From Escherichia phage CBA6: 28,906 nucleotides of DNA. How positions within the stretch are numbered: position 1 is the first letter of the stretch; every line of letters begins with the position of its first letter. The notes beneath the pieces are model-generated. The model ran no database searches. It was not told where the DNA came from and worked only from the letters and a program-made list of their open reading frames with translations. A program made the position numbers and the translations under genes. Of the stretch, positions 5,283 to 25,980 are shown one piece after another. Location: sequence record KM389305.1. One strand, given 5' to 3'.

Positions 5283-5696
5283 ATGAAATTACTCGGTTAT
5301 TTTCGTTCTTTACCCACTGGATCTCCTAATGGGGGCCAGTTATATTCTGAAGTCAAAGGGGATGTTGACGACACCCATATCGCCCTATATGCTCGGGATA
5401 TACCAGACCCAACTAAATTTGACCGCCGCGTAGTGGCCGCTGCCAACAGATATGGTGATGTCATCGTTGTAAGCGCCCGTCACCACGACAAATTAATGAA
5501 TGCGCAACTGAAACGATTGAAGGAAGCAGGTGTTATCGAAAACACCCGCACGCGTGAACAAGGGTTTATCGATAACTATGGGCAATGGATGTCTAGGGAA
5601 GAGGCGGCTATTGTAGCCCGTGAAGCTGGACAAACCAATCAAGTTCGTTTGAAGAACACTCCTTTCCGTGAACTCTTTTCCGAAGACCTCTATTGA
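5283..5696 (+). CDS. hypothetical protein (137 aa)
   Basis: Clean ORF with ordered-looking composition; conserved-looking blocks YGDVIVVSARHHD and QGFIDNYGQWMSREEAAIVAREAGQ; no family could be assigned. Confidence 0.5.
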   Translation: MKLLGYFRSLPTGSPNGGQLYSEVKGDVDDTHIALYARDIPDPTKFDRRVVAAANRYGDVIVVSARHHDKLMNAQLKRLKEAGVIENTRTREQGFIDNYGQWMSREEAAIVAREAGQTNQVRLKNTPFRELFSEDLY

Positions 5697-5744
5697 AGAA
5701 AATGGCGGTATAATTGCCGCCTAACCCCATATTGAGATAATACC

Positions 5745-10785: not shown

Positions 10786-10803
10786 TAATTTATTTTATTG
10801 AAG

Positions 10804-10834
10804 AAGGGGAAGGTATACTTCCCCTTAATTTATT
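10804..10834 (+). terminator. rho-independent terminator
   Basis: AAGGGGA-AGGTATACT-TCCCCTT stem-loop followed by AATTTATT. Confidence 0.55.
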
Positions 10835-18932: not shown

Positions 18933-19075
18933 GGCGTTTCTCCCTGCTTTTCTGTTTCTGTAATCTGTGACGTTCAGAACAGAACTGATTGAACTCCGAC
19001 ATCAAGCCTTTCTCTTTAATGAAAAGCATTGCGTTCCGGAAAGCGATCCCGATTTTTACATATGACGGCGGATTT

Positions 19076-19339
19076 TTACCAACCACGTGATCTCTCCTCT
19101 GATTTAACGAAACGTTGAAACTCTTCTGTTTTTCCTTGGCGATGAATAAACACCAATGCCAAAATAAAACGACGGAATGATTTTGGGATAAGACGATAAC
19201 CGTTTGTCCAATTATAGACAACGTCAGAACAATTCATCATCTTCATCATTTGCAATTCAGAAACTCCCAACTCCCGCATAATGGTTAAGAGATGTAATGA
19301 GTCATTATTCTTTCTTGGTTGTTTGTCAACAAGTTTCAT
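19076..19339 (-). CDS. XRE-family helix-turn-helix DNA-binding protein
   Basis: HTH signature LTIMRELGVSELQMMKMMNCSDVVYNWTNGYRLIPKS; SD GAAGGTAA and a TATAAT hexamer upstream on the minus strand. Confidence 0.5.
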   Translation of the reverse strand: MKLVDKQPRKNNDSLHLLTIMRELGVSELQMMKMMNCSDVVYNWTNGYRLIPKSFRRFILALVFIHRQGKTEEFQRFVKSEERSRGW

Positions 19340-19382
19340 AACATTACCTTCATGACGATATGCCGGAATTATACCTCTGTGG

Positions 19383-19414
19383 GATTTATTGAAAGGGGTT
19401 GCGGAGAACCCCTT
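19383..19414 (-). terminator. stem-loop AAGGGGTT-GCGGAG-AACCCCTT; candidate minus-strand terminator
   Basis: Perfect 8-bp inverted repeat, followed on the minus strand by TCAATAAAT. Confidence 0.4.
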
Positions 19415-19632
19415 TGTTCAACTAAGACGGGAGAACCAGAGGGATATCTTCCAAGTACTCCCCAGTGTTGGTGTCCCAGACCTCGATACTGAAATACTGG
19501 GTGGCATCTTTCAGACCCATACCCCACTTCTTGGCGTGGATAGGAAACTTCTCTTGCACCGCTTCTGGGCTGGTCAGTACCGCCTAACGTCCAGGCCTTC
19601 ATGGTTGTTGTGATACATCAGGAGGAAAATTT

Positions 19633-19842
19633 TCATCCAACAACCTCATAACTGTTGGACAGCTGCTTGCCCTGGGCATTGTAATGGGAATGCTTGACAA
19701 TCTCACCCTGGCGTACCAGGACGCGAAGGCATCCACTCACCATGCTCATGGGGATGTTAGCACCCTCGGCGATTTGAGCATAGGAGCAATTAGGATTTGA
19801 GCGGATGAATTCCTTCACTCGGTTGAACGTTATGCTGCTCAT
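19633..19842 (-). CDS. small winged-helix DNA-binding protein
   Basis: 69 aa; ATGA overlap with the DNA ligase stop; segment YAQIAEGANIPMSMVSGCLRVLVRQGEIVK is typical of a wHTH recognition helix and wing. Confidence 0.45.
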   Translation of the reverse strand: MSSITFNRVKEFIRSNPNCSYAQIAEGANIPMSMVSGCLRVLVRQGEIVKHSHYNAQGKQLSNSYEVVG

Positions 19843-21266
19843 GCGGCCTCCAGCAGTGTGACGATGTTTTCGATGTATGCTTTCTGAATCGCATAAACTT
19901 CAGCCAGCGTGTTGGCCTCTTTCTTGTCAGTGCGGACTTCCACCAGGCGAGGTAGGAACAGGGATTTCAGTGAGTCCTCGGTTTTATCCTGGACACCGTT
20001 AGAGAGCACTGCAGCTATCATGCCAATGAAGTCATCCTGGTTTTCCCACATCCGGAGTCTCAGCTCATCTGAGATCCCCGAAACACCAACGACTAATAGG
20101 CCGTCCGCTGTCTTACAAAGCAGGGAGCCGAATGTCTTGGCATGCTTACCCTTCTGGTCGGCCTCATTGAAGCCAACGATTTCAAGGTCACATTCCACTT
20201 CCATCTTCAGCTTCAGACCTTCAGAGGACGTGCCGTCTTCCCATGGCATATCAGCCGCTTTGCAGATCGTTCCTTCTTCACCACGGGCCAGTGCGTCCTT
20301 GAAATGATCAACCGCCTCTTCAAACGAATGAACGACACGGGTCTCCTGAACCTGAACCAGACCATCGCCTTCATCAAACAGTTGCTGTATGATATCGAAG
20401 CGCTGCTCGTAAGGCGTGTCCACGCGCTCGGCGGCGAACCACTTGTCATACGGCACAACATCCCACACTCGGTAGATCACCTTGTAACGATCTTCCAGGG
20501 GTTCACCCGTTTGGATGACACTGTTGAGCTTACCATTGCCGATAGCCCGAGGCAACACTGTATTCGTTTTCAGATCAATGACGAGGAGTTCACCATGGAA
20601 TACACTTTCACCAATCCCCGCATCGTAGATCAGGTCTTTGAAAACTAATGACAGGTTATCAACAGAACCTCCTGCAATAAGAGAACCGGAACGAGAACGA
20701 ATCTCTGGGTCTCTTCCATAACGACAGATGATGTTGGCGAACATGCCATCTGACTTCAGCTGGCTGAAGACGCCACGCTTAAAGTCCATCGTCTTCAACA
20801 AATCAATCGTCATGTTGCCATAACGATGATATGGGAGGATGTTAATCAGGCGACCTGTGCCTCCGGCTGCGTTGAATGCTGCGTTGATACCTTTCTCAGC
20901 AATCCCCGCTTTAATGTCTCGGTCGAGAATGATCTGGATGAGGGTGTGATAATCAGAGTGAATATTCGTTGCGGCTTTTGCCAGTTCTTGGTCGGCCTTC
21001 ATCCCGCCAATACGACGTTCTGACATCATATCAAGAACGTCATAAACCTGATCCCAGCTACCGACAACGCCGCGCGAAAGCATACGAGGGAATGCATTCA
21101 GATTGAATTGGGTGCGATAATAAGAACGCATTGGATCATAAACGTATTGAAGGAAATCAACCAGTTCCGGATTGGTTCTGAACGCTTCGGTCAACACGGC
21201 TTTCTTAGCATTAGTGCCTTTGGTATCACGAAGATTTTGGATTATTTCTAAGAGAGGAAGCATCAT
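19839..21266 (-). CDS. gp30: ATP-dependent DNA ligase
   Basis: 475 aa; adenylation motif I KSDGMF (KxDG); size matches T4 DNA ligase. Confidence 0.8.
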   Translation of the reverse strand: MMLPLLEIIQNLRDTKGTNAKKAVLTEAFRTNPELVDFLQYVYDPMRSYYRTQFNLNAFPRMLSRGVVGSWDQVYDVLDMMSERRIGGMKADQELAKAATNIHSDYHTLIQIILDRDIKAGIAEKGINAAFNAAGGTGRLINILPYHRYGNMTIDLLKTMDFKRGVFSQLKSDGMFANIICRYGRDPEIRSRSGSLIAGGSVDNLSLVFKDLIYDAGIGESVFHGELLVIDLKTNTVLPRAIGNGKLNSVIQTGEPLEDRYKVIYRVWDVVPYDKWFAAERVDTPYEQRFDIIQQLFDEGDGLVQVQETRVVHSFEEAVDHFKDALARGEEGTICKAADMPWEDGTSSEGLKLKMEVECDLEIVGFNEADQKGKHAKTFGSLLCKTADGLLVVGVSGISDELRLRMWENQDDFIGMIAAVLSNGVQDKTEDSLKSLFLPRLVEVRTDKKEANTLAEVYAIQKAYIENIVTLLEAA

Positions 21267-21324
21267 GTGTCTCCAGGGTTATTCGTCTTGTTATTATAAC
21301 CCCAGAGACTTCAATAGAATTATT

Positions 21325-21663
21325 CTAACTTCTTTCCTTGACAGAAGTGAAAGATTCTTTCCATCCTTTGAATTGTTCAGTCAGGGTTTCTTTCTCCATT
21401 TCCCCATTGGAAACGCTATGGATATATGCAAATGCGTCATAACCATAACCAGGCATTGCTTCACAAATACGAAGAGAGACCAATGTTTCGCCCACAGAAA
21501 CCAGATAATGATCACGACGATGGCTCAGAGGATAGTGATTGTCATGGAATTTGTCGATAACAACGCAGTTCTGTGGTTCGGCGTCAATTGCCAGCCCGTT
21601 GGCTTCGCTACCGCCGCGCCCAAGGGTGCATCCTGGGAATAATGTTTCTACGAGTGTGGTCAT
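21325..21663 (-). CDS. hypothetical protein (His-rich segment FHDNHYPLSHRRDH)
   Basis: 112-aa ORF, last gene of a tightly coupled minus-strand operon. Confidence 0.4.
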   Translation of the reverse strand: MTTLVETLFPGCTLGRGGSEANGLAIDAEPQNCVVIDKFHDNHYPLSHRRDHYLVSVGETLVSLRICEAMPGYGYDAFAYIHSVSNGEMEKETLTEQFKGWKESFTSVKERS

Positions 21664-21664
21664 A

Positions 21665-21874
21665 TTACTTCCTCATCATATTCAATAAATTAATTTTGCC
21701 CTTTGCTTCTGGGGCATACCAAACGTTCTGAGAGTGCCTCTTACAGCACGGACAATCCTTAATGGCAATTACACAGGGAGCCTTGTCCACGGCATATCCA
21801 GCGTCTTCGGCTTCCTTGACGGTGTTAAATGGCAAGTATGCACTTGTGCCTTGCCCTCCACATGAACATTCCAT
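21665..21874 (-). CDS. small Cys-rich protein
   Basis: 69 aa with CSCGG...C...CPCC; start overlaps the upstream stop by 1 nt. Confidence 0.4.
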   Translation of the reverse strand: MECSCGGQGTSAYLPFNTVKEAEDAGYAVDKAPCVIAIKDCPCCKRHSQNVWYAPEAKGKINLLNMMRK

Positions 21875-22074
21875 TAAAAATCCTCCTGAGGTGAATAGAA
21901 TATATCGATTTTCAACGCAAGGCGCTTAACACGGCGAGCGTGACGATGTTCTTTCTTTATCCCCTCGGAACGTTTAGCTACAGAACGACGATTTTTATAT
22001 TTTTCTGAAGGATATTTGTCGTGTCCTGGGCAACAAGATCCAGGATCATACACATCCTTAATTTCGCGCTTCAT
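21874..22074 (-). CDS. small basic protein
   Basis: 66 aa, Lys/Arg-rich, contains GSCCPGHD; start abuts the stop of the upstream small ORF (TGAATG). Confidence 0.35.
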   Translation of the reverse strand: MKREIKDVYDPGSCCPGHDKYPSEKYKNRRSVAKRSEGIKKEHRHARRVKRLALKIDIFYSPQEDF

Positions 22075-22191
22075 TCATTTCTTCCTCTTAAAGGGGATGA
22101 TCAGGGCTATGATTAACAGCATAGCTGTGATCACTCCGCATGCGATAAGACCGAATGCAAATGCTTTCAAAACAAATTGTAAAAGAATCAT
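22075..22191 (-). CDS. 38-aa single-pass membrane peptide (not in the ORF track)
   Basis: Hand-translated minus strand: MILLQFVLKAFAFGLIACGVITAMLLIIALIIPFKRKK; ATG overlaps the stop of the 397-aa gene (ATGA) and its stop abuts the next ATG. Confidence 0.4.
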   Translation of the reverse strand: MILLQFVLKAFAFGLIACGVITAMLLIIALIIPFKRKK

Positions 22192-23381
22192 AATTTCCTC
22201 AGTTTTGCCCTTGTTACCTGAGTTTGTTTAACATCTTTGAATTCGGTCAATTCTTTGACGCGACCACGAATGATCATATCACCTTCCAGGAATTCGGTTT
22301 CCATATAAGAAGTCTTCCATGTAATGGTATTGCCTTCTTTGGTTTTGAAAGTATACAGATACGTGTCACCATAATCAGATGAATACAGGAAAATCCTTGC
22401 TTCGAATTTGACTTGCACTTCTAACATTTCACCGACTTCCCCCACCCAATTTGATACAGAACGCATTTGGCGGGGGGTGTGGATATAATCATAATACTTT
22501 GCTGCTCCCCAACGAACTGTCGTGGAGTCCTTAACGAGGTGATATCCAGGTTCACACATACGTTTCAGACGAACGTTGAAATCATTGTTCTCAGACAACG
22601 CGGCGATGAAAAGCATCATATGGTACATCTCTGATTGAGCATCTTCACGGGCTTTAACTGCCTTGTTATAGAATATCTCAATGTCAGAACCTTTCTCCGG
22701 ACGAGTCCCGCTAGAAATATGACCAAGAACTCGACCAAAATCATCGCTCTTCATGCTCATACCAGACAGCAGAACCTGAAAGCAATTCCGCAAATAACCT
22801 TCAGTGTCAACGTAATCAGGTTCGTTCACTCGATAGATGCCTTCAGGGTCATCTTCATCAGGTGAGAACATTTCATGTATCGACATATAATAAGACATCA
22901 CGGCATCAAGCGATTTCTGATGAGGAACGTAATGGTGCATACAGCTACTGCCGACCAACATTTGAGCGCCGGATTGTTCGTTACGAACAACATATGTGTT
23001 ATGACGACGCACAGATTTATTACAATGCTCACACCAAGACACGTTTTCGGCTTCGAATCTTTGAATGAAATTAGGGTGGATGTCATCTGCTAATTTATTC
23101 AAGATGACTTTTGGATATTGGTGATTGAATTGTCCAATAATGCTCCACCCGCCGTAGGAAACAGGGCGGTCGATGCCTTCACCAGTGAGTGTACAATCCT
23201 GCCACCACCGATAGAATTTTTCACCAGTGATAGAATCGCGATGCTGGGTTTTGTATGGTTCGCTGTATTCGACAAGAGGGAACTCGAGATTCAGGCGCTT
23301 GGCCGTTCTTTCAAGTTTGGCCAGACGTTCCTTGACACGACCAATGTTGTCGATAGGAATACTGAAGGTCTTGGCTTTCAT
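22188..23381 (-). CDS. hypothetical protein, 397 aa, with a Cys/His cluster
   Basis: SD GAGAGG before the ATG; central WCEHCNKSVRRHN...GSSCMHHY cluster; C-terminal beta-rich region; no family assigned. Confidence 0.55.
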   Translation of the reverse strand: MKAKTFSIPIDNIGRVKERLAKLERTAKRLNLEFPLVEYSEPYKTQHRDSITGEKFYRWWQDCTLTGEGIDRPVSYGGWSIIGQFNHQYPKVILNKLADDIHPNFIQRFEAENVSWCEHCNKSVRRHNTYVVRNEQSGAQMLVGSSCMHHYVPHQKSLDAVMSYYMSIHEMFSPDEDDPEGIYRVNEPDYVDTEGYLRNCFQVLLSGMSMKSDDFGRVLGHISSGTRPEKGSDIEIFYNKAVKAREDAQSEMYHMMLFIAALSENNDFNVRLKRMCEPGYHLVKDSTTVRWGAAKYYDYIHTPRQMRSVSNWVGEVGEMLEVQVKFEARIFLYSSDYGDTYLYTFKTKEGNTITWKTSYMETEFLEGDMIIRGRVKELTEFKDVKQTQVTRAKLRKL

Positions 23382-23457
23382 ATTTGCCTCTCATGATATA
23401 GTGAAACTTTTCAAAGTAGGTTAAATGATAGCCGTATGTTTTATTGAAGTAAAGGTT

Positions 23458-23489
23458 TCAAATAAAAAGCCCAACAATTTGTTGGGCTT
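23458..23489 (-). terminator. rho-independent terminator (minus strand)
   Basis: AAGCCCAAC-AATTT-GTTGGGCTT stem-loop followed on the minus strand by TTTTTATTT, 10 nt after the stop of the 23500-23811 gene. Confidence 0.65.
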
Positions 23490-23499
23490 TCTGGGGGAT

Positions 23500-23811
23500 T
23501 TATGGCTGAGGATCGGCTGCGCGATCAGGCGCTGCATTAGGATACAGAGACTCATAGAGATCTTGGTATTTGGCGCTGGTCTCGATGGTCTTGGTGTATG
23601 TTCCGCCAGCGCGGTCAGTAACGACTTTGCGCAGATCAACGGCTTTGATGCCTGTTTCTTTTGCCAATTCGGCCAGAGCTTCGGTAACAAATGTCTGTTC
23701 AGACTTGATACGGATCTGGGCGGCGCGGCAATTTTCCAATGTCTGCATCATCTTTTGACGCAGCTTGGGATCAGAAGGAAGTTGGTAAAACCCGATTTGT
23801 TCAACTGACAT
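23500..23811 (-). CDS. hypothetical protein
   Basis: 103-aa ORF followed by a strong terminator. Confidence 0.45.
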   Translation of the reverse strand: MSVEQIGFYQLPSDPKLRQKMMQTLENCRAAQIRIKSEQTFVTEALAELAKETGIKAVDLRKVVTDRAGGTYTKTIETSAKYQDLYESLYPNAAPDRAADPQP

Positions 23812-23823
23812 AACATATCCTCA

Positions 23824-24156
23824 TTAATGACGAGAACCGAGTGGGCCAATACTGGTCCCCAAACGGCGCAGGAAGAAATAAACGATACTGTGGAAACCAA
23901 ACTTAGGAATAATGTCGACACCTTCAACTTTATAATATTCCTGAGTATTGGTCTGCACTGGCAACGGGAAAGATGGAAGATCGAGCTGAACCAATTCTCC
24001 TGGTTCGCAATGTATCTTAACAGCCTTACCCCAATGCCGTCGATTCTTGTAAAATTCCAATGTCTGCTCTGTAGACAGACTGAGACTGGTTTGTCCAGAC
24101 TGGCACACCTGTTGTGCCGCCTGAATCAGGTCAGCTATAAATGCAACATCCGACAT
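23824..24156 (-). CDS. hypothetical protein
   Basis: 110-aa ORF downstream of the helicase gene. Confidence 0.4.
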   Translation of the reverse strand: MSDVAFIADLIQAAQQVCQSGQTSLSLSTEQTLEFYKNRRHWGKAVKIHCEPGELVQLDLPSFPLPVQTNTQEYYKVEGVDIIPKFGFHSIVYFFLRRLGTSIGPLGSRH

Positions 24157-24219: not shown

Positions 24220-25650
24220 TTAACCGAAATTCCAACTATTGACGGTCTCGGCTTTTTTAACATCATTTGAGTCCCCCGTTTTATTCAAGTCATGCTTGAT
24301 ATGCACGTTTTCAACATAACGGGCTTCTTCATCAGTCAGGTCTCGTTTGACTTCATTCCAGTCCAAGTCGAACAATATCTGTTTATCTTGGTCCATACCG
24401 AACAAGAAAGATTTGAGTTTCTGCTTGTTGGCATAACGATTTTTCAAGATTGATGCTCTGGCTTTCTTAACAGCCGCCAGTTCGTCTGGGGCATAAAACG
24501 CCATGATAAAGTCAGCGACCTTCGGGATACCGATAGCGTCTGCCAAGTCACTGATATCACCATCAGTTGCTGATTGCTTTTCACGGTTAAACTGCATACC
24601 TGTCCAAACAGGGCAATCAAACTCAAACCCAAGAGCACGGAATTCCCGCGCCACGGATGTATAATACACGTTGGTGTTTTGCATCAAGTGAGCGGGAAGG
24701 CGAGAAGACGCAGATTCCCCCAGGTAGTCAATGATGATAACATCAGGCGTAATTCCTGTTGCAGTCGCATAATCAAGAATATCGCGACGATACAAACCTG
24801 TATGCCCCGCGCCCGAAGGATATTCCTTGATAACAATATCACCCTTCATGGAACCGTCTTGACGGGTTCTCAGTTTTTGTATGGTGGCAATATACTCGTG
24901 CCGTGAGAGCTTCTCTAAGGACTCGAAGTCCCTGCGCATCATACGGGCATCAAGGCGGTGTCGCCAGACGTTCTCGGCCACTTCGAGGGTGAATACGAAC
25001 ACATTCAACCCCTGCTCAGCATAACCAGCAGCCAAATCAATCAGAGTTGTTGTCTTACCTGCGTTGATTGCGCCTGTAACGATGTTCAATGTCTTCTTGC
25101 CAACACCACCACGAGTTGCTTTGTTGAATATCTCTACGGCGAAAGGGATCTTCGCTTCATTAGAGTTCATGTGGTCGTATTGTTGCTCAGCCATTTCCCA
25201 ATAGATGTGACCGAGATATGAATCAAACTGAATCGCCAGGGCTTCTTGCAGCAAAGTAGGGATGTTGTTCATCTCATCTTTGCGTTTCTCATCGCCGTAT
25301 ATGTTAACGGCTTGTCTAATTGCGTTATGAACAGCTTTCTGGCGCGCCCAACTTTCTGTTTCTTTTACTAACCAGTCCTGATGAAAAGTATTGTCATTAA
25401 TATTTTCAAGAGCAGAAATGGCCTGATCAAATACGTGTTCGTTGAGCGAAGTCTTTTCCAGCATAATAGACAGCGCTTCAACCGAAGGACGAGCATTATA
25501 TTCGCAAGTGTAATGGTCTATAAGACCAAATATAATCTTCTCGCCTTCGTTATCGAAATAATCGGCTTTCAAATACGGCTGGATCTTTCTTTGATATTCT
25601 TCATTGTAGATTAATTGGGAAAGCACGACAGATTCGAGTAACATTGGCAA
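24220..25650 (-). CDS. gp41: replicative DNA helicase, DnaB-like
   Basis: 476 aa; Walker A VTGAINAGKTT; size and context match T4 gp41. Confidence 0.85.
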   Translation of the reverse strand: MPMLLESVVLSQLIYNEEYQRKIQPYLKADYFDNEGEKIIFGLIDHYTCEYNARPSVEALSIMLEKTSLNEHVFDQAISALENINDNTFHQDWLVKETESWARQKAVHNAIRQAVNIYGDEKRKDEMNNIPTLLQEALAIQFDSYLGHIYWEMAEQQYDHMNSNEAKIPFAVEIFNKATRGGVGKKTLNIVTGAINAGKTTTLIDLAAGYAEQGLNVFVFTLEVAENVWRHRLDARMMRRDFESLEKLSRHEYIATIQKLRTRQDGSMKGDIVIKEYPSGAGHTGLYRRDILDYATATGITPDVIIIDYLGESASSRLPAHLMQNTNVYYTSVAREFRALGFEFDCPVWTGMQFNREKQSATDGDISDLADAIGIPKVADFIMAFYAPDELAAVKKARASILKNRYANKQKLKSFLFGMDQDKQILFDLDWNEVKRDLTDEEARYVENVHIKHDLNKTGDSNDVKKAETVNSWNFG

Positions 25651-25980
25651 CTACCCCACCAAAATTTTGTTGTAATCCTGAGCATTTTGCTGTATCAGAT
25701 CAACTAAGATATCCCCAGACACCACAGTGAACAAGTCATTTTCTTTCAAATTAACAAATAACAAACGCCATGGTTTCTTCAATATATCCGTCGTAAAGGA
25801 TAACCGAGGTTCTCCATTGTCTACATGGACACCCACTTTTCCTACACGAAATTGAACACCGCGGAACTTGCCTTCCGTTATTTCGATAATAGCTAACTGA
25901 TCAGAACCAGGGTCGATGATTTTGTAATTAACGGGGGAGTCTCCTCCCCCTGCAATATTACTCGGTTGTTTTGATGACAT
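25651..25980 (-). CDS. hypothetical protein at the position of T4 gene 40
   Basis: 109-aa ORF between the UvsX and helicase genes; no motif recognised; call by synteny only. Confidence 0.4.
   Translation of the reverse strand: MSSKQPSNIAGGGDSPVNYKIIDPGSDQLAIIEITEGKFRGVQFRVGKVGVHVDNGEPRLSFTTDILKKPWRLLFVNLKENDLFTVVSGDILVDLIQQNAQDYNKILVG

Follow-up and report, generated by a model that had tools for sequence, protein, structure and literature searches.

The five minus-strand genes lying between the helicase and ligase genes of Escherichia phage CBA6 are probably independently acquired accessory genes of a 'hyperplastic' segment, packed as genes ordinarily are in this genome, and their products do not appear to make up one assembly. 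As a 'system' the cluster is of little importance and its value lies in by-products. The most useful of these is the unannotated 69-aa Cys4 protein, which can be tested as an accessory subunit of a phage DNA ligase. More tentatively, and with less than even confidence in the pair of proposals taken together, we suggest that the 69-aa protein serves the ligase as a detachable zinc-finger subunit and that the 397-aa protein is the founder of a zinc-knuckle/OB-fold phage family.

Organization and annotation of the cluster

The window we analyzed is a stretch of 28,906 nucleotides from phage CBA6 (KM389305.1), and all positions given here are positions within it (Table 1). The source phage, framed in the initial annotation as T4, is a Kuttervirus (Ackermannviridae) of the ViI/CBA120-like type, and the window is 99.8–99.9% identical to ECML-4 and Marshall. 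Both of these phages already carry all five genes, including the one for the 38-aa peptide, as hypothetical; as gene calls they are nothing new. The cluster sits inside a T4-like replication module, with a gp41-type helicase on one side and a gp30-type ligase on the other. The sizes (397, 38, 66, 69 and 112 aa), coordinates and junctions of the five open reading frames are exactly as first described, as is their arrangement in a tight chain behind a predicted terminator with the ligase gene downstream, and all five have a Shine-Dalgarno site of the GAGG/AGGAGG type 5–9 nt upstream of the start codon.

Table 1. Features of the cluster and its borders, in window positions
Feature	Position	Strand	Description
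ATP-dependent DNA ligase (T4 gp30-like)	19839..21266	-	Pfam DNA_ligase_A_M, E = 4e-15; so annotated in relatives
Conserved 14-bp hairpin	21269..21309	-	Between the 112-aa and ligase genes; 3' arm holds the ligase Shine-Dalgarno site (GGAG)
112-aa acidic protein	21325..21663	-	Highly conserved; FPGC.LGRGG, FHDNHY and RRDHYLV motifs
69-aa Cys4 protein, putative zinc module	21665..21874	-	Invariant C3, C5, C41, C44
66-aa basic protein	21874..22074	-	pI 9.8; invariant PG.CCP.HD.YP and IKKEHRH.RRV motifs
38-aa single-pass membrane peptide	22075..22191	-	Hydrophobic core and C-terminal KRKK; start overlapping the stop of the 397-aa gene (ATGA)
397-aa protein	22188..23381	-	Predicted N-terminal alpha/beta domain, zinc-ribbon-like knuckle, helical middle, C-terminal OB fold
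Putative sigma70-like promoter	23425..23453	-	-35 TTTACT 23453-23448, 17-nt spacer, -10 TATCAT 23430-23425
Predicted Rho-independent terminator	23458..23489	-	Closes the upstream gp41-helicase unit; 13-bp stem, AAAGCCCAACAAA/UUGUUGGGCUUUU region, then U-tract

The earlier remark that none of the five proteins matches a nameable family also holds: Pfam, NCBIfam and PADLOC scans of all five returned zero matches, and the only assignments are to PHROGs of unknown function. A significant profile or structure match to known anti-phage defence or solved-structure families was found for none of the five. A literature search on Ackermannviridae transcriptomes and on any characterised homologue found nothing relevant, and Rfam returned zero RNA families across 18–26 kb of the window.

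Transcription and gene spacing

The hairpin at the upstream border (−17.6 kcal/mol, z = −4.9) is matched in stability by 0 of 200 shuffled sequences, its stem is kept in other genera with sequence changes in both arms, and the Marshall and LIMEstone1 records annotate a terminator at the same place. Fold energy, U-tract and these annotations together support the terminator predicted here by the initial annotation. Directly after it, a promoter scan picked up the putative sigma70-like promoter, giving a composite terminator/promoter element in which CTTTACTT is invariant across five Ackermannviridae genera. In LIMEstone1 the same element is listed as a putative middle promoter from in-silico prediction (PMC3296691). 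Its TTTACT-N17-TATCAT fits the consensus TTTACW-N17-TAYWAT of PeSL promoters (PMC4122927), and the order of parts, an intergenic stem-loop terminator followed by a sigma70-like promoter and bordering variable genes, is that expected of a PeSL-type element. A TTGAAR-N10-TATMAT box lies nearest the 397-aa start codon, and a transcript from there would be almost leaderless.

Hyperplastic regions and PeSL (promoter-early stem-loop) cassettes have been described in T4-type phages (Arbiol et al. 2010, PMC2839356; Comeau et al. 2014, PMC4122927). The segment studied here resembles them in its small, packed early genes, mostly of unknown function, between conserved core genes, in the composite of terminator stem-loop and sigma70-like promoter at its boundary, and in the gain and loss of single genes between near-identical phages. 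It differs in that PeSL cassettes were described for Straboviridae whereas this phage belongs to Ackermannviridae, and in that there is one clear composite here; the element before the ligase gene has a −10-like box inside a hairpin and a TATTGAAG box at a spacing that is not that of sigma70.

Scanning of 21325–23381 revealed no terminator-like site on the minus strand, nor was one found before the ligase gene. With the promoter upstream, this lack of an internal terminator and a boundary at the end, the five genes are predicted to be one compact unit that is probably co-transcribed and translationally coupled. Transcription would start at the conserved promoter immediately past the terminator and place all five genes on one mRNA, and ribosomes, aided by each gene's own Shine-Dalgarno site, would be passed along at the overlapping or abutting stop and start codons. 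These junctions are an ATGA overlap (397/38-aa), TGAATG with a 0-nt gap (38/66-aa), TAATG with a 1-nt overlap (66/69-aa) and TAATATG with a 1-nt gap (69/112-aa). Tight same-strand junctions (overlapping or at most 3 nt apart) are nonetheless the norm here, making up 31 of the 46 in the region, or 27 of 42 when the cluster's own four are excluded, and runs of four to five of them occur four times. Spacing tighter than the genomic background would be looked for in an operon encoding a multi-subunit system, and that in the cluster is no tighter. The broader lesson is that, where a phage genome is compact, overlapping stop and start codons are no evidence for a protein complex, and that presence or absence among relatives offers a quick test of complex claims drawn from gene overlap.

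Gene content among relatives

A synteny table covering seven genera revealed that the five genes are not inherited together. Homologues are found in 409 phage records for the 397-aa protein, 278 for the 69-aa, 234 for the 112-aa and 146 for the 66-aa protein. Phage maane, which is viable, has lost the 397-aa gene but still has the 38-, 69- and 112-aa genes; extra genes are inserted in the cluster of phages 241, Ag3 and Zahir; and the 66-aa and 112-aa genes each occur alone in unrelated phages. Since the genes come and go independently among relatives, we infer that their products are not subunits of one machine. The initial annotation had made lack of conservation in relatives a test of its own proposal, and on that test the five-gene arrangement is not conserved but the 38-aa open reading frame is. 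The order of the backbone genes (397-aa gene ... 69-aa gene, ligase, helicase loader) extends to a Vibrio phage in which the homologue of the 397-aa protein has only 23% identity. Conservation of the order over that distance could reflect a common role in DNA metabolism.

The 66-aa protein (PHROG 5428) provides the clearest instance of gain and loss. Among Kutterviruses with 397-aa proteins that are 95–99% identical, its gene is either cleanly present or cleanly absent, and it is missing from 6 of 11 Kuttervirus-type IMG/VR loci; where it is absent, a 2-nt junction separates the 38-aa and 69-aa genes. Homologues with 57–76% identity are found in Felixounavirus, in Morganella and Yersinia T4-like phages and in Pseudomonas phage phiPMW, consistent with a small mobile cassette that would move between unrelated phages. 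We considered and rejected this protein as ligase-associated: it adjoins the ligase in Felixounavirus but not in the Morganella, Yersinia and Pseudomonas phages.

The gene for the 112-aa protein is absent from Limestonevirus, Miltonvirus and Bue1, and elsewhere inserted genes part it from its neighbors. The protein had been called His-rich, a description that amounts to five His residues only. A confident structural model predicts a five-strand sheet with a C-terminal helix, and no structural relatives of this model were found; the product would be a small conserved protein of a fold without recognisable relatives. Several GenBank records label the gene 'DNA ligase', and we rejected the protein as part of the ligase, since the label traces to a propagated pVOG name alone and a homologue in an Alishewanella phage is not near any ligase. 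The label is likely a mis-annotation.

The 69-aa protein and the DNA ligase

In Serratia phage phiMAM1, in KNP4 and in two IMG/VR loci (L042 and L043), a module homologous to the 69-aa protein, a linker of about 20 aa and the ligase form one continuous open reading frame. This fused form is the Miltonvirus arrangement; the module is the ligase's own N-terminus there, whereas in CBA6 it is a separate polypeptide encoded one gene away. Where it is separate it is linked to the ligase gene: the ligase gene is immediately preceded by a homologue in LIMEstone1, Bue1, IMG/VR locus L039 and Vibrio phage D531 (the last recognized by hhalign with 93.9% probability, E = 1.5e-7), and in all 23 Ackermannviridae-type loci examined the gene is found upstream of the ligase and on its strand. 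No homologue was detected near 41 distant ligases.

It is the fusion of a homologous module to the ligase, a Rosetta-stone link, that ties the 69-aa protein to this enzyme. Judged from these fusions and gene positions, the 69-aa protein is a free-standing form of the N-terminal domain of a phage ATP-dependent DNA ligase, and the ligase is its probable functional partner. The Cys4 module, its four invariant Cys being putative zinc ligands, would work with the downstream ligase, in trans in CBA6 and as an N-terminal domain in Miltonvirus, probably aiding the binding of DNA or of a partner by the ligase. Eukaryotic DNA ligase III has an N-terminal zinc finger and NAD-dependent LigA has a Cys4 zinc finger. 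As in those enzymes, a small Cys4 module is attached to, or here encoded beside, a ligase; the likeness noted is one of arrangement, and the module may act in sensing nicks or binding DNA. The 69-aa protein may supply a T4-type DNA ligase with a detachable zinc-finger subunit; if so, Ackermannviridae would have a two-component ligase whose targeting to DNA or the replisome is supplied in trans.

A small 'DNA ligase' open reading frame upstream of a Felixounavirus ligase, pinkbiff_124, scored an hhalign probability of 1% against the 69-aa protein and was rejected as its homologue. The two do have the CxC...CxxC pattern in common.

The 397-aa protein

The Cys/His cluster first noticed in the 397-aa protein is real. 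Its putative zinc knuckle comprises C117, C120 and C147 together with H119/H149, and an alignment of 60 sequences from the wider family shows no variation at the three Cys; H119 is nearly invariant in the wide family and H149 only within Ackermannviridae. In a PDB profile search the knuckle showed a weak, non-significant resemblance (E = 1.3) to ribosomal protein bL36. The C-terminal domain (approximately residues 319–396) is modelled as a five-stranded beta-barrel that can be superposed on known OB folds, and its conserved residues W355, K376, Q386, T387 and R391 hint at binding of single-stranded DNA or RNA. The modelled domain resembles the DNA-binding domains of RPA and the wedge of RecG, and also bacterial and human SSB and the anticodon-binding domain of AspRS; sequence identity to these known OB binders is 4–18%, and the remaining ~310 residues are without a PDB match. 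At the sequence level the protein matches no SSB family. Searching PDB sequences with the protein itself and with two profiles returned nothing significant, and Pfam gave scattered sub-threshold matches only, first for 10 and later for 60 distant members of the family. An HNH or nucleotidyltransferase fold, which the initial annotation had suggested checking, and a primase likewise found no support in any search.

Given the three invariant Cys and the modelled OB fold, the 397-aa protein probably binds nucleic acid. Its family numbers about 8,350 cluster representatives, all uncharacterised phage proteins with no Pfam entry, in settings as different as T4-like hyperplastic regions and the immunity region of temperate phages. 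In maane only the last 14 codons of the gene are left, and the 38-aa gene is joined in frame to the remnant of a homing endonuclease. We call the gene dispensable because of this natural deletion. The maane contig was missing from a whole-contig motif scan that caught the other nine Kuttervirus contigs of the ligase set. The deletion could be an assembly error, though the two reading frames are joined cleanly.

The 397-aa protein would thus be non-essential and, given its putative zinc knuckle and predicted OB fold, most likely an accessory factor that binds single-stranded nucleic acid. It may belong to a very large unnamed phage zinc-knuckle/OB-fold family whose N-terminal ~300 residues have no PDB relative, and, if so, would be an early dispensable nucleic-acid binder, for example in counter-defence, possibly acting with the coupled 38-aa peptide. 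This 'hypothetical protein' is a useful lead in that it combines a family thousands strong, a predicted OB fold and a natural knockout.

The 38-aa membrane peptide

The 38-aa peptide was initially presented as a hidden membrane peptide. It is hydrophobic (GRAVY 1.74, pI 10.5) and conserved, in keeping with a membrane peptide, but it is not hidden: the open reading frame is annotated as Marshall_158, as Ag3 orf00054 ('hypothetical membrane protein') and as LIMEstone1 ORF034, and its product belongs to PHROG 6569 (E = 5e-27). Its Shine-Dalgarno site, GAGGAA, lies within the last codons of the 397-aa gene. Homologues with the ATGA overlap and 82–84% identity are found in Limestonevirus and Agtrevirus, Taipeivirus has a 46-aa analogue, and 14–17 of the 24–26 substitutions in the gene fall at codon position 3. 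The overlap, kept in four genera, and this third-position bias indicate that the 38-aa open reading frame is a real gene. Its product would be a membrane peptide with a basic C-terminus, translated by re-initiation at the ATGA. The T4 superinfection-exclusion proteins Imm and Sp are small membrane proteins from the early region. The predicted peptide is like them in being a short, hydrophobic, single-pass product with a basic cytoplasmic end encoded among early genes, but it has no sequence similarity to them and is much shorter.

Alternative explanations

The initial annotation had taken tight coupling to imply stoichiometric co-expression of a multi-subunit system. That the five gene products are subunits of one multi-protein system is very improbable and is, on sequence comparison, already largely refuted by comparative genomics: all four junctions do overlap or have a gap of at most 1 nt and the genes lie in one unit bounded by promoter and terminator, but the same spacing recurs at most other junctions, near-identical phages differ by an indel of the 66-aa gene, the 112-aa gene may be missing or out of place, the 397-aa gene can be lost, and the 66- and 112-aa genes can be solitary. 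A smaller unit, in which the 397-aa protein and the 38-aa peptide form two components and the other three genes are unrelated passengers, is also unlikely. On this view the peptide would tether the OB-fold protein to the inner membrane or regulate it there, perhaps for action on DNA that is entering or being replicated, or for superinfection exclusion. The ATGA overlap and the Shine-Dalgarno site inside the last codons of the 397-aa gene are kept in Kuttervirus, Agtrevirus and Limestonevirus, Taipeivirus keeps the arrangement with its divergent 46-aa peptide, and a distant metagenomic 397-aa homologue is followed after 2 nt by a 76-aa hydrophobic open reading frame. Yet maane keeps the peptide gene without the 397-aa gene, the latter occurs without the peptide in Miltonvirus, Nezavisimistyvirus and Vibrio, Cronobacter, Aeromonas and Streptomyces phages, and small membrane-protein genes are common all over the variable region.

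We think it quite unlikely that the 397-aa protein serves the T4-like replisome as a core factor in replication or recombination (SSB-like, origin-binding, or a partner in ligase/Okazaki-fragment processing) and the cluster a ligase-centered module. Natural loss in maane, a position remote from replication genes in KVP40-like, S13 and phiWae14 phages and beside integrase and repressor in temperate phages, and a ligase that is complete without the 397-aa protein, with distant ligase loci lacking both the 397- and 69-aa genes, all argue against a core role, although the RPA/RecG-wedge-like OB fold with its conserved aromatic and basic residues would suit one. So would the location of the gene, which throughout Ackermannviridae is between helicase and ligase and in Vibrio phage D531 precedes ligase and helicase loader, the SNF2-type helicase nearby at 27 of 80 distant loci, and the link of the 69-aa protein to the ligase. 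Possible, if still rather doubtful, is an early role in counter-defence or host takeover, in which the protein would bind a nucleic-acid species, be it an immune trigger or effector of the host or else host RNA or DNA, and would be dispensable on permissive laboratory hosts. Such a role would accord with the dispensability of the gene, the scatter of its family over unrelated virulent, jumbo and temperate phages, its early/hyperplastic location behind an early-type promoter, and the position of temperate-phage homologues at the border of the immunity region. It fits less well with the protein's lack of similarity to known anti-defence proteins or, beyond the OB fold, to solved structures, and its strong conservation and fixed synteny in Ackermannviridae would be odd for a fast-evolving anti-defence gene. 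We favor the reading of the cluster as a segment of independently acquired accessory genes.

The hairpin before the ligase gene

The hairpin between the 112-aa and ligase genes (−21.4 kcal/mol, z = −4.6) is also present in phage 241, LIMEstone1, Zahir and Ag3. In the alignment 98.6% of cells are paired, four pairs vary one-sidedly and there are zero double compensatory changes; since the substitutions are one-sided only, covariation support is weak. A TATAAT box (21298–21293) runs from the last part of the 5' arm into the loop, and the 5' edge of the hairpin has a TATTGAAG box. In the T4 late genes e, soc, 49 and I-TevI the ribosome-binding site is sequestered in early read-through RNA and an internal promoter yields an open transcript. 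The ligase hairpin is like these in that it pairs the Shine-Dalgarno site and has TATAAT between its arms, such that upstream and internal transcripts would differ in translatability; unlike them, the ligase case is wholly predicted, and ligase is an early or middle function in T4 whereas the sequestered genes are late. Transcripts reading through into the ligase gene should fold the hairpin and hide the ligase Shine-Dalgarno site, and the promoter-like box inside it would give the ligase a translatable transcript of its own.

Genomic context and existing annotation of the cluster

The 3-kb stretch 21000–24000, which spans the five minus-strand genes encoding proteins of 397, 38, 66, 69 and 112 aa, matches 187 phage records and is 99.8–99.9% identical to the Salmonella phages vB_SenM-AKM_ssTn, Marshall and Maynard and the Escherichia phage ECML-4, all members of the genus Kuttervirus (Ackermannviridae, ViI/CBA120 group). 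The cluster sits within a T4-like replication module in the order UvsX, gp41-type helicase, two small genes, the five cluster genes, gp30-type ATP-dependent ligase, small genes and gp59-type helicase loader. The ORFs and junctions given in the initial annotation are exact, a GAGG-type Shine–Dalgarno site precedes each ORF, and the hairpin bracketing the cluster upstream is indeed strong and terminator-like. The genes can still be called unknowns in that Pfam, NCBIfam and PADLOC gave no match for any of the five proteins, all of which are assigned to PHROGs of unknown function. The 38-aa ORF, however, escapes notice only where an ORF track applies a length cut-off; all five genes are already annotated in Marshall (genes 157–161), phage 241, Ag3 and LIMEstone1.

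The surroundings of the cluster are mosaic, as comparison of window positions 18933–19838 and 25650–25651 with Marshall (L001/L011) and with phage 241 (L002) shows. An HNH homing endonuclease adjoins the helicase gene in Marshall and is absent from the window, in which the ligase-to-helicase-loader interval is ~250 nt longer; the two ligases are only 95.8% identical, as against 100% for the five cluster genes. In phage 241, ViI and Ag3 the 69-aa gene and the ligase are separated by as many as five additional genes, among them an e.6-like gene and genes for small membrane proteins.

Features of the cluster and its flanks, and of comparison loci
Feature	Position	Strand	Remark
397-aa gene	22188–23381	−	
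38-aa gene	22075–22191	−	
66-aa gene	21874–22074	−	
69-aa gene	21665–21874	−	
112-aa gene	21325–21663	−	
Ligase gene	19839–21266	−	
Terminator-like hairpin	23458–23489	−	−17.6 kcal/mol, z = −4.9
Predicted sigma70-like site	23453–23425	−	TTTACT-N17-TATCAT, immediately after terminator
Ligase-leader hairpin, 14 bp	21269–21309	−	−21.4 kcal/mol, z = −4.6; in 58-nt spacer
Element copies, among others	5691–5730	+	
	10796–10830	+	
	21293–21316	−	
	23393–23414	−	
66-aa homologue, Felixounavirus phage pinkbiff (Escherichia)	L008:2501–2689	+	Unannotated GTG-initiated 62-codon ORF, 63% identity
66-aa homologues, Morganella and Yersinia T4-like phages			Early regions
66-aa homologue, Pseudomonas phage phiPMW			tRNA cluster
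112-aa gene labelled 'DNA ligase'			rabagast gp130 (L009), bering, allotria, maane, pertopsoe, moki, STP55, STP-4
maane gp128	108015–108389 (NC_049508)		Annotated 'homing endonuclease'
76-aa ORF, metagenomic contig	L012:7200–7430		

Spacing and inheritance of the five genes

The tight coupling had been taken to imply a multi-subunit system expressed in stoichiometric amounts. Across the equivalent 29 kb as annotated in Marshall, 31 of the 46 same-strand junctions overlap or are ≤3 nt apart (27 of 42 outside the cluster), and runs of four or five such junctions in succession are seen four times. Coupling of these five genes is not special; tight spacing is the packing style of the genome. Nor, judging from their distribution, are the genes a co-inherited set. 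When the 397-, 69-, 112- and 66-aa proteins were searched by tblastn against 50,697 phage records, matches were found in 409, 278, 234 and 146 records, respectively, and the host ranges differed. A synteny table of Ackermannviridae genera places the 397- and 69-aa genes in every genus examined, the 38-aa gene in Kuttervirus, Agtrevirus and Limestonevirus (Taipeivirus has a divergent 46-aa analogue), the 112-aa gene only in Kuttervirus, Agtrevirus and Taipeivirus, often set apart from both the 69-aa gene and the ligase by 1–5 extra genes, and the 66-aa gene in some Kutterviruses only. Six IMG/VR Kuttervirus contigs whose 397-aa protein is 95–99% identical are missing the 66-aa gene and have a 2-nt gap between the 38- and 69-aa genes, so that gain or loss of a cassette by itself recreates the 'coupling'. 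With spacing at the genomic norm and the genes not inherited together, the multi-subunit proposal does not stand. The cluster is an ordinary, already-annotated array of early accessory genes in a well-sequenced phage genus. It offers three leads: the 69-aa protein's connection to the ligase, the 397-aa family, for its size and dispensability, and the conserved hairpin and promoter-like box before the ligase.

The 69-aa protein and the ligase

Residues C3, C5, C41 and C44 are invariant in all homologues of the 69-aa protein. In Serratia phages phiMAM1 and KNP4 and in two IMG/VR contigs the homologue forms the N-terminus of the ligase itself, joined to it by a linker of ~20 residues with no stop codon. 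In LIMEstone1 and Bue1 the gene directly precedes the ligase. Vibrio phage D531, with a ligase of only 35% identity, has a homologue (hhalign 93.9%, E = 1.5e-7; BLASTP 2e-6) 5 nt before its ligase gene. Among IMG/VR ligase loci, it is upstream on the same strand in 23 of 23 of Ackermannviridae type and in none of 41 more distant ones. This classical gene-fusion and neighbourhood evidence argues for the 69-aa protein acting together with the ligase, conceivably in DNA or nick recognition or in tethering to the replisome.

The 397-aa protein and the 38-aa peptide

A word-indexed search found only 20 relatives of the 397-aa protein. When a profile was searched exhaustively against 1.84 billion representatives, the number rose to 8,351 at E ≤ 1e-3 (4,286 at E ≤ 1e-10), almost all of them full-length proteins of 370–420 aa; Pfam has no entry for the family. 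In a 60-sequence alignment C117, C120, C147, G144 and R391 are invariant and H119, R126, W355, K376, Q386 and T387 nearly so. The AF2 model (pLDDT 82) begins with an alpha/beta domain, followed by a small beta knuckle that bears the Cys residues, a helical domain and, at the C-terminus, a barrel. Homologues lie between the DNA end protector and the ligase in D531, among unknown early genes in KVP40-like, Cronobacter and Aeromonas T4-like phages, and near RecA and an exonuclease in Streptomyces phage Zuko. About a quarter (20–27) of 80 distant IMG/VR loci (L110–L189), many of them from one sample so that the counts are not independent, place the homologue in a temperate-phage immunity (lysogeny-switch) region. 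There, on temperate-phage-sized contigs, an integrase and an HTH (HTH_3) repressor lie upstream on the other strand, with DUF739 and HTH_3 genes 0.3–0.7 kb and an SNF2-type helicase ~2.3 kb downstream. Our best guess is an early accessory single-stranded nucleic-acid-binding protein, which may serve either replication or recombination, or counter-defence.

Salmonella phage maane (L027/L086) is a natural knockout of this gene. Only its last 14 codons survive, within gp128, where an F-LimIV-like endonuclease remnant, those codons and the whole 38-aa peptide are fused in frame, after which the 69-aa gene, 112-aa gene and ligase follow in the usual order. A motif scan of whole IMG/VR contigs detected the gene in all of the other nine Kuttervirus contigs in the ligase set and not in maane; the 397-aa gene is thus dispensable for a plaque-forming phage.

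The 38-aa peptide, with a GRAVY of 1.74, is strongly hydrophobic and ends in a KRKK tail, and in Limestonevirus and Agtrevirus it is 82–84% identical with the ATGA overlap always present. Codon differences are 11–13 synonymous versus 6–7 non-synonymous, and third positions account for 14–17 of 24–26 substitutions, a pattern that marks the ORF as a real, selected gene, as had been proposed. An obligatory partnership with the 397-aa protein is unlikely because each gene occurs without the other, the 38-aa gene in maane and the 397-aa gene in several lineages. In a metagenomic contig with a distant 397-aa homologue, a 76-aa two-helix hydrophobic ORF begins 2 nt past the homologue's stop, which may echo the pairing with a membrane peptide or be coincidence.

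Predicted transcription signals

The −35 block CTTTACTT of the sigma70-like site is invariant across Kuttervirus, Limestonevirus, Taipeivirus, Agtrevirus and Miltonvirus, and the LIMEstone1 authors annotated the same element, from sequence alone, as a putative promoter (PMC3296691). In T4-type phages, a terminator stem-loop with such a promoter right behind it is known as the PeSL arrangement; the order here is the same and the hexamers fit the T4/PST consensus (PMC4122927). No terminator-like site was found on the minus strand in the cluster interior, and the five genes would form one early transcription unit.

The ligase-leader hairpin pairs the ligase Shine–Dalgarno site (GGAG) within its 3' arm, a TATAAT box runs from the end of the 5' arm into the loop, and at the 5' edge of the hairpin there is a TATTGAAG box. 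The structure is common to Kuttervirus, Limestonevirus, Taipeivirus and Agtrevirus; 98.6% of positions pair across the four genera, with weak covariation support because substitutions are one-sided only. Read-through into the ligase gene would be translationally masked and the ligase would have its own start point. The hairpin may act as a switch, with read-through mRNA being untranslatable and a transcript that starts within the hairpin translatable. T4 genes e, soc and 49 behave in this way, and the arrangement predicted here resembles theirs.

In the window the octamer TATTGAAG occurs 8 times (1.2 expected; none of 100 shuffles reaches 8) and TTGAAR-N10-TATMAT 5 times (1.0 expected); three copies of the element, in intergenic spacers, have a short inverted repeat across the −10-like box. 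These may represent a phage-specific, perhaps middle-type, promoter/stem-loop element with non-sigma70 spacing.

The 66- and 112-aa genes

The 66-aa protein is basic (pI 9.8) with invariant blocks PG.CCP.HD.YP and IKKEHRH.RRV, and has homologues at 57–76% identity in several unrelated phages. It behaves as a mobile small gene whose putative target is strongly constrained. The first base of the pinkbiff homologue coincides with the last base of the ligase stop codon; in several Felixounavirus records the match falls under a 'DNA ligase' feature or carries no annotation. The 112-aa gene is itself labelled 'DNA ligase' in several GenBank/RefSeq records, a reading with no sequence or structure evidence in support; the label traces to the pVOG name VOG8809, 'DNA ligase [Salmonella phage 38]', and is probably a propagated mis-annotation.
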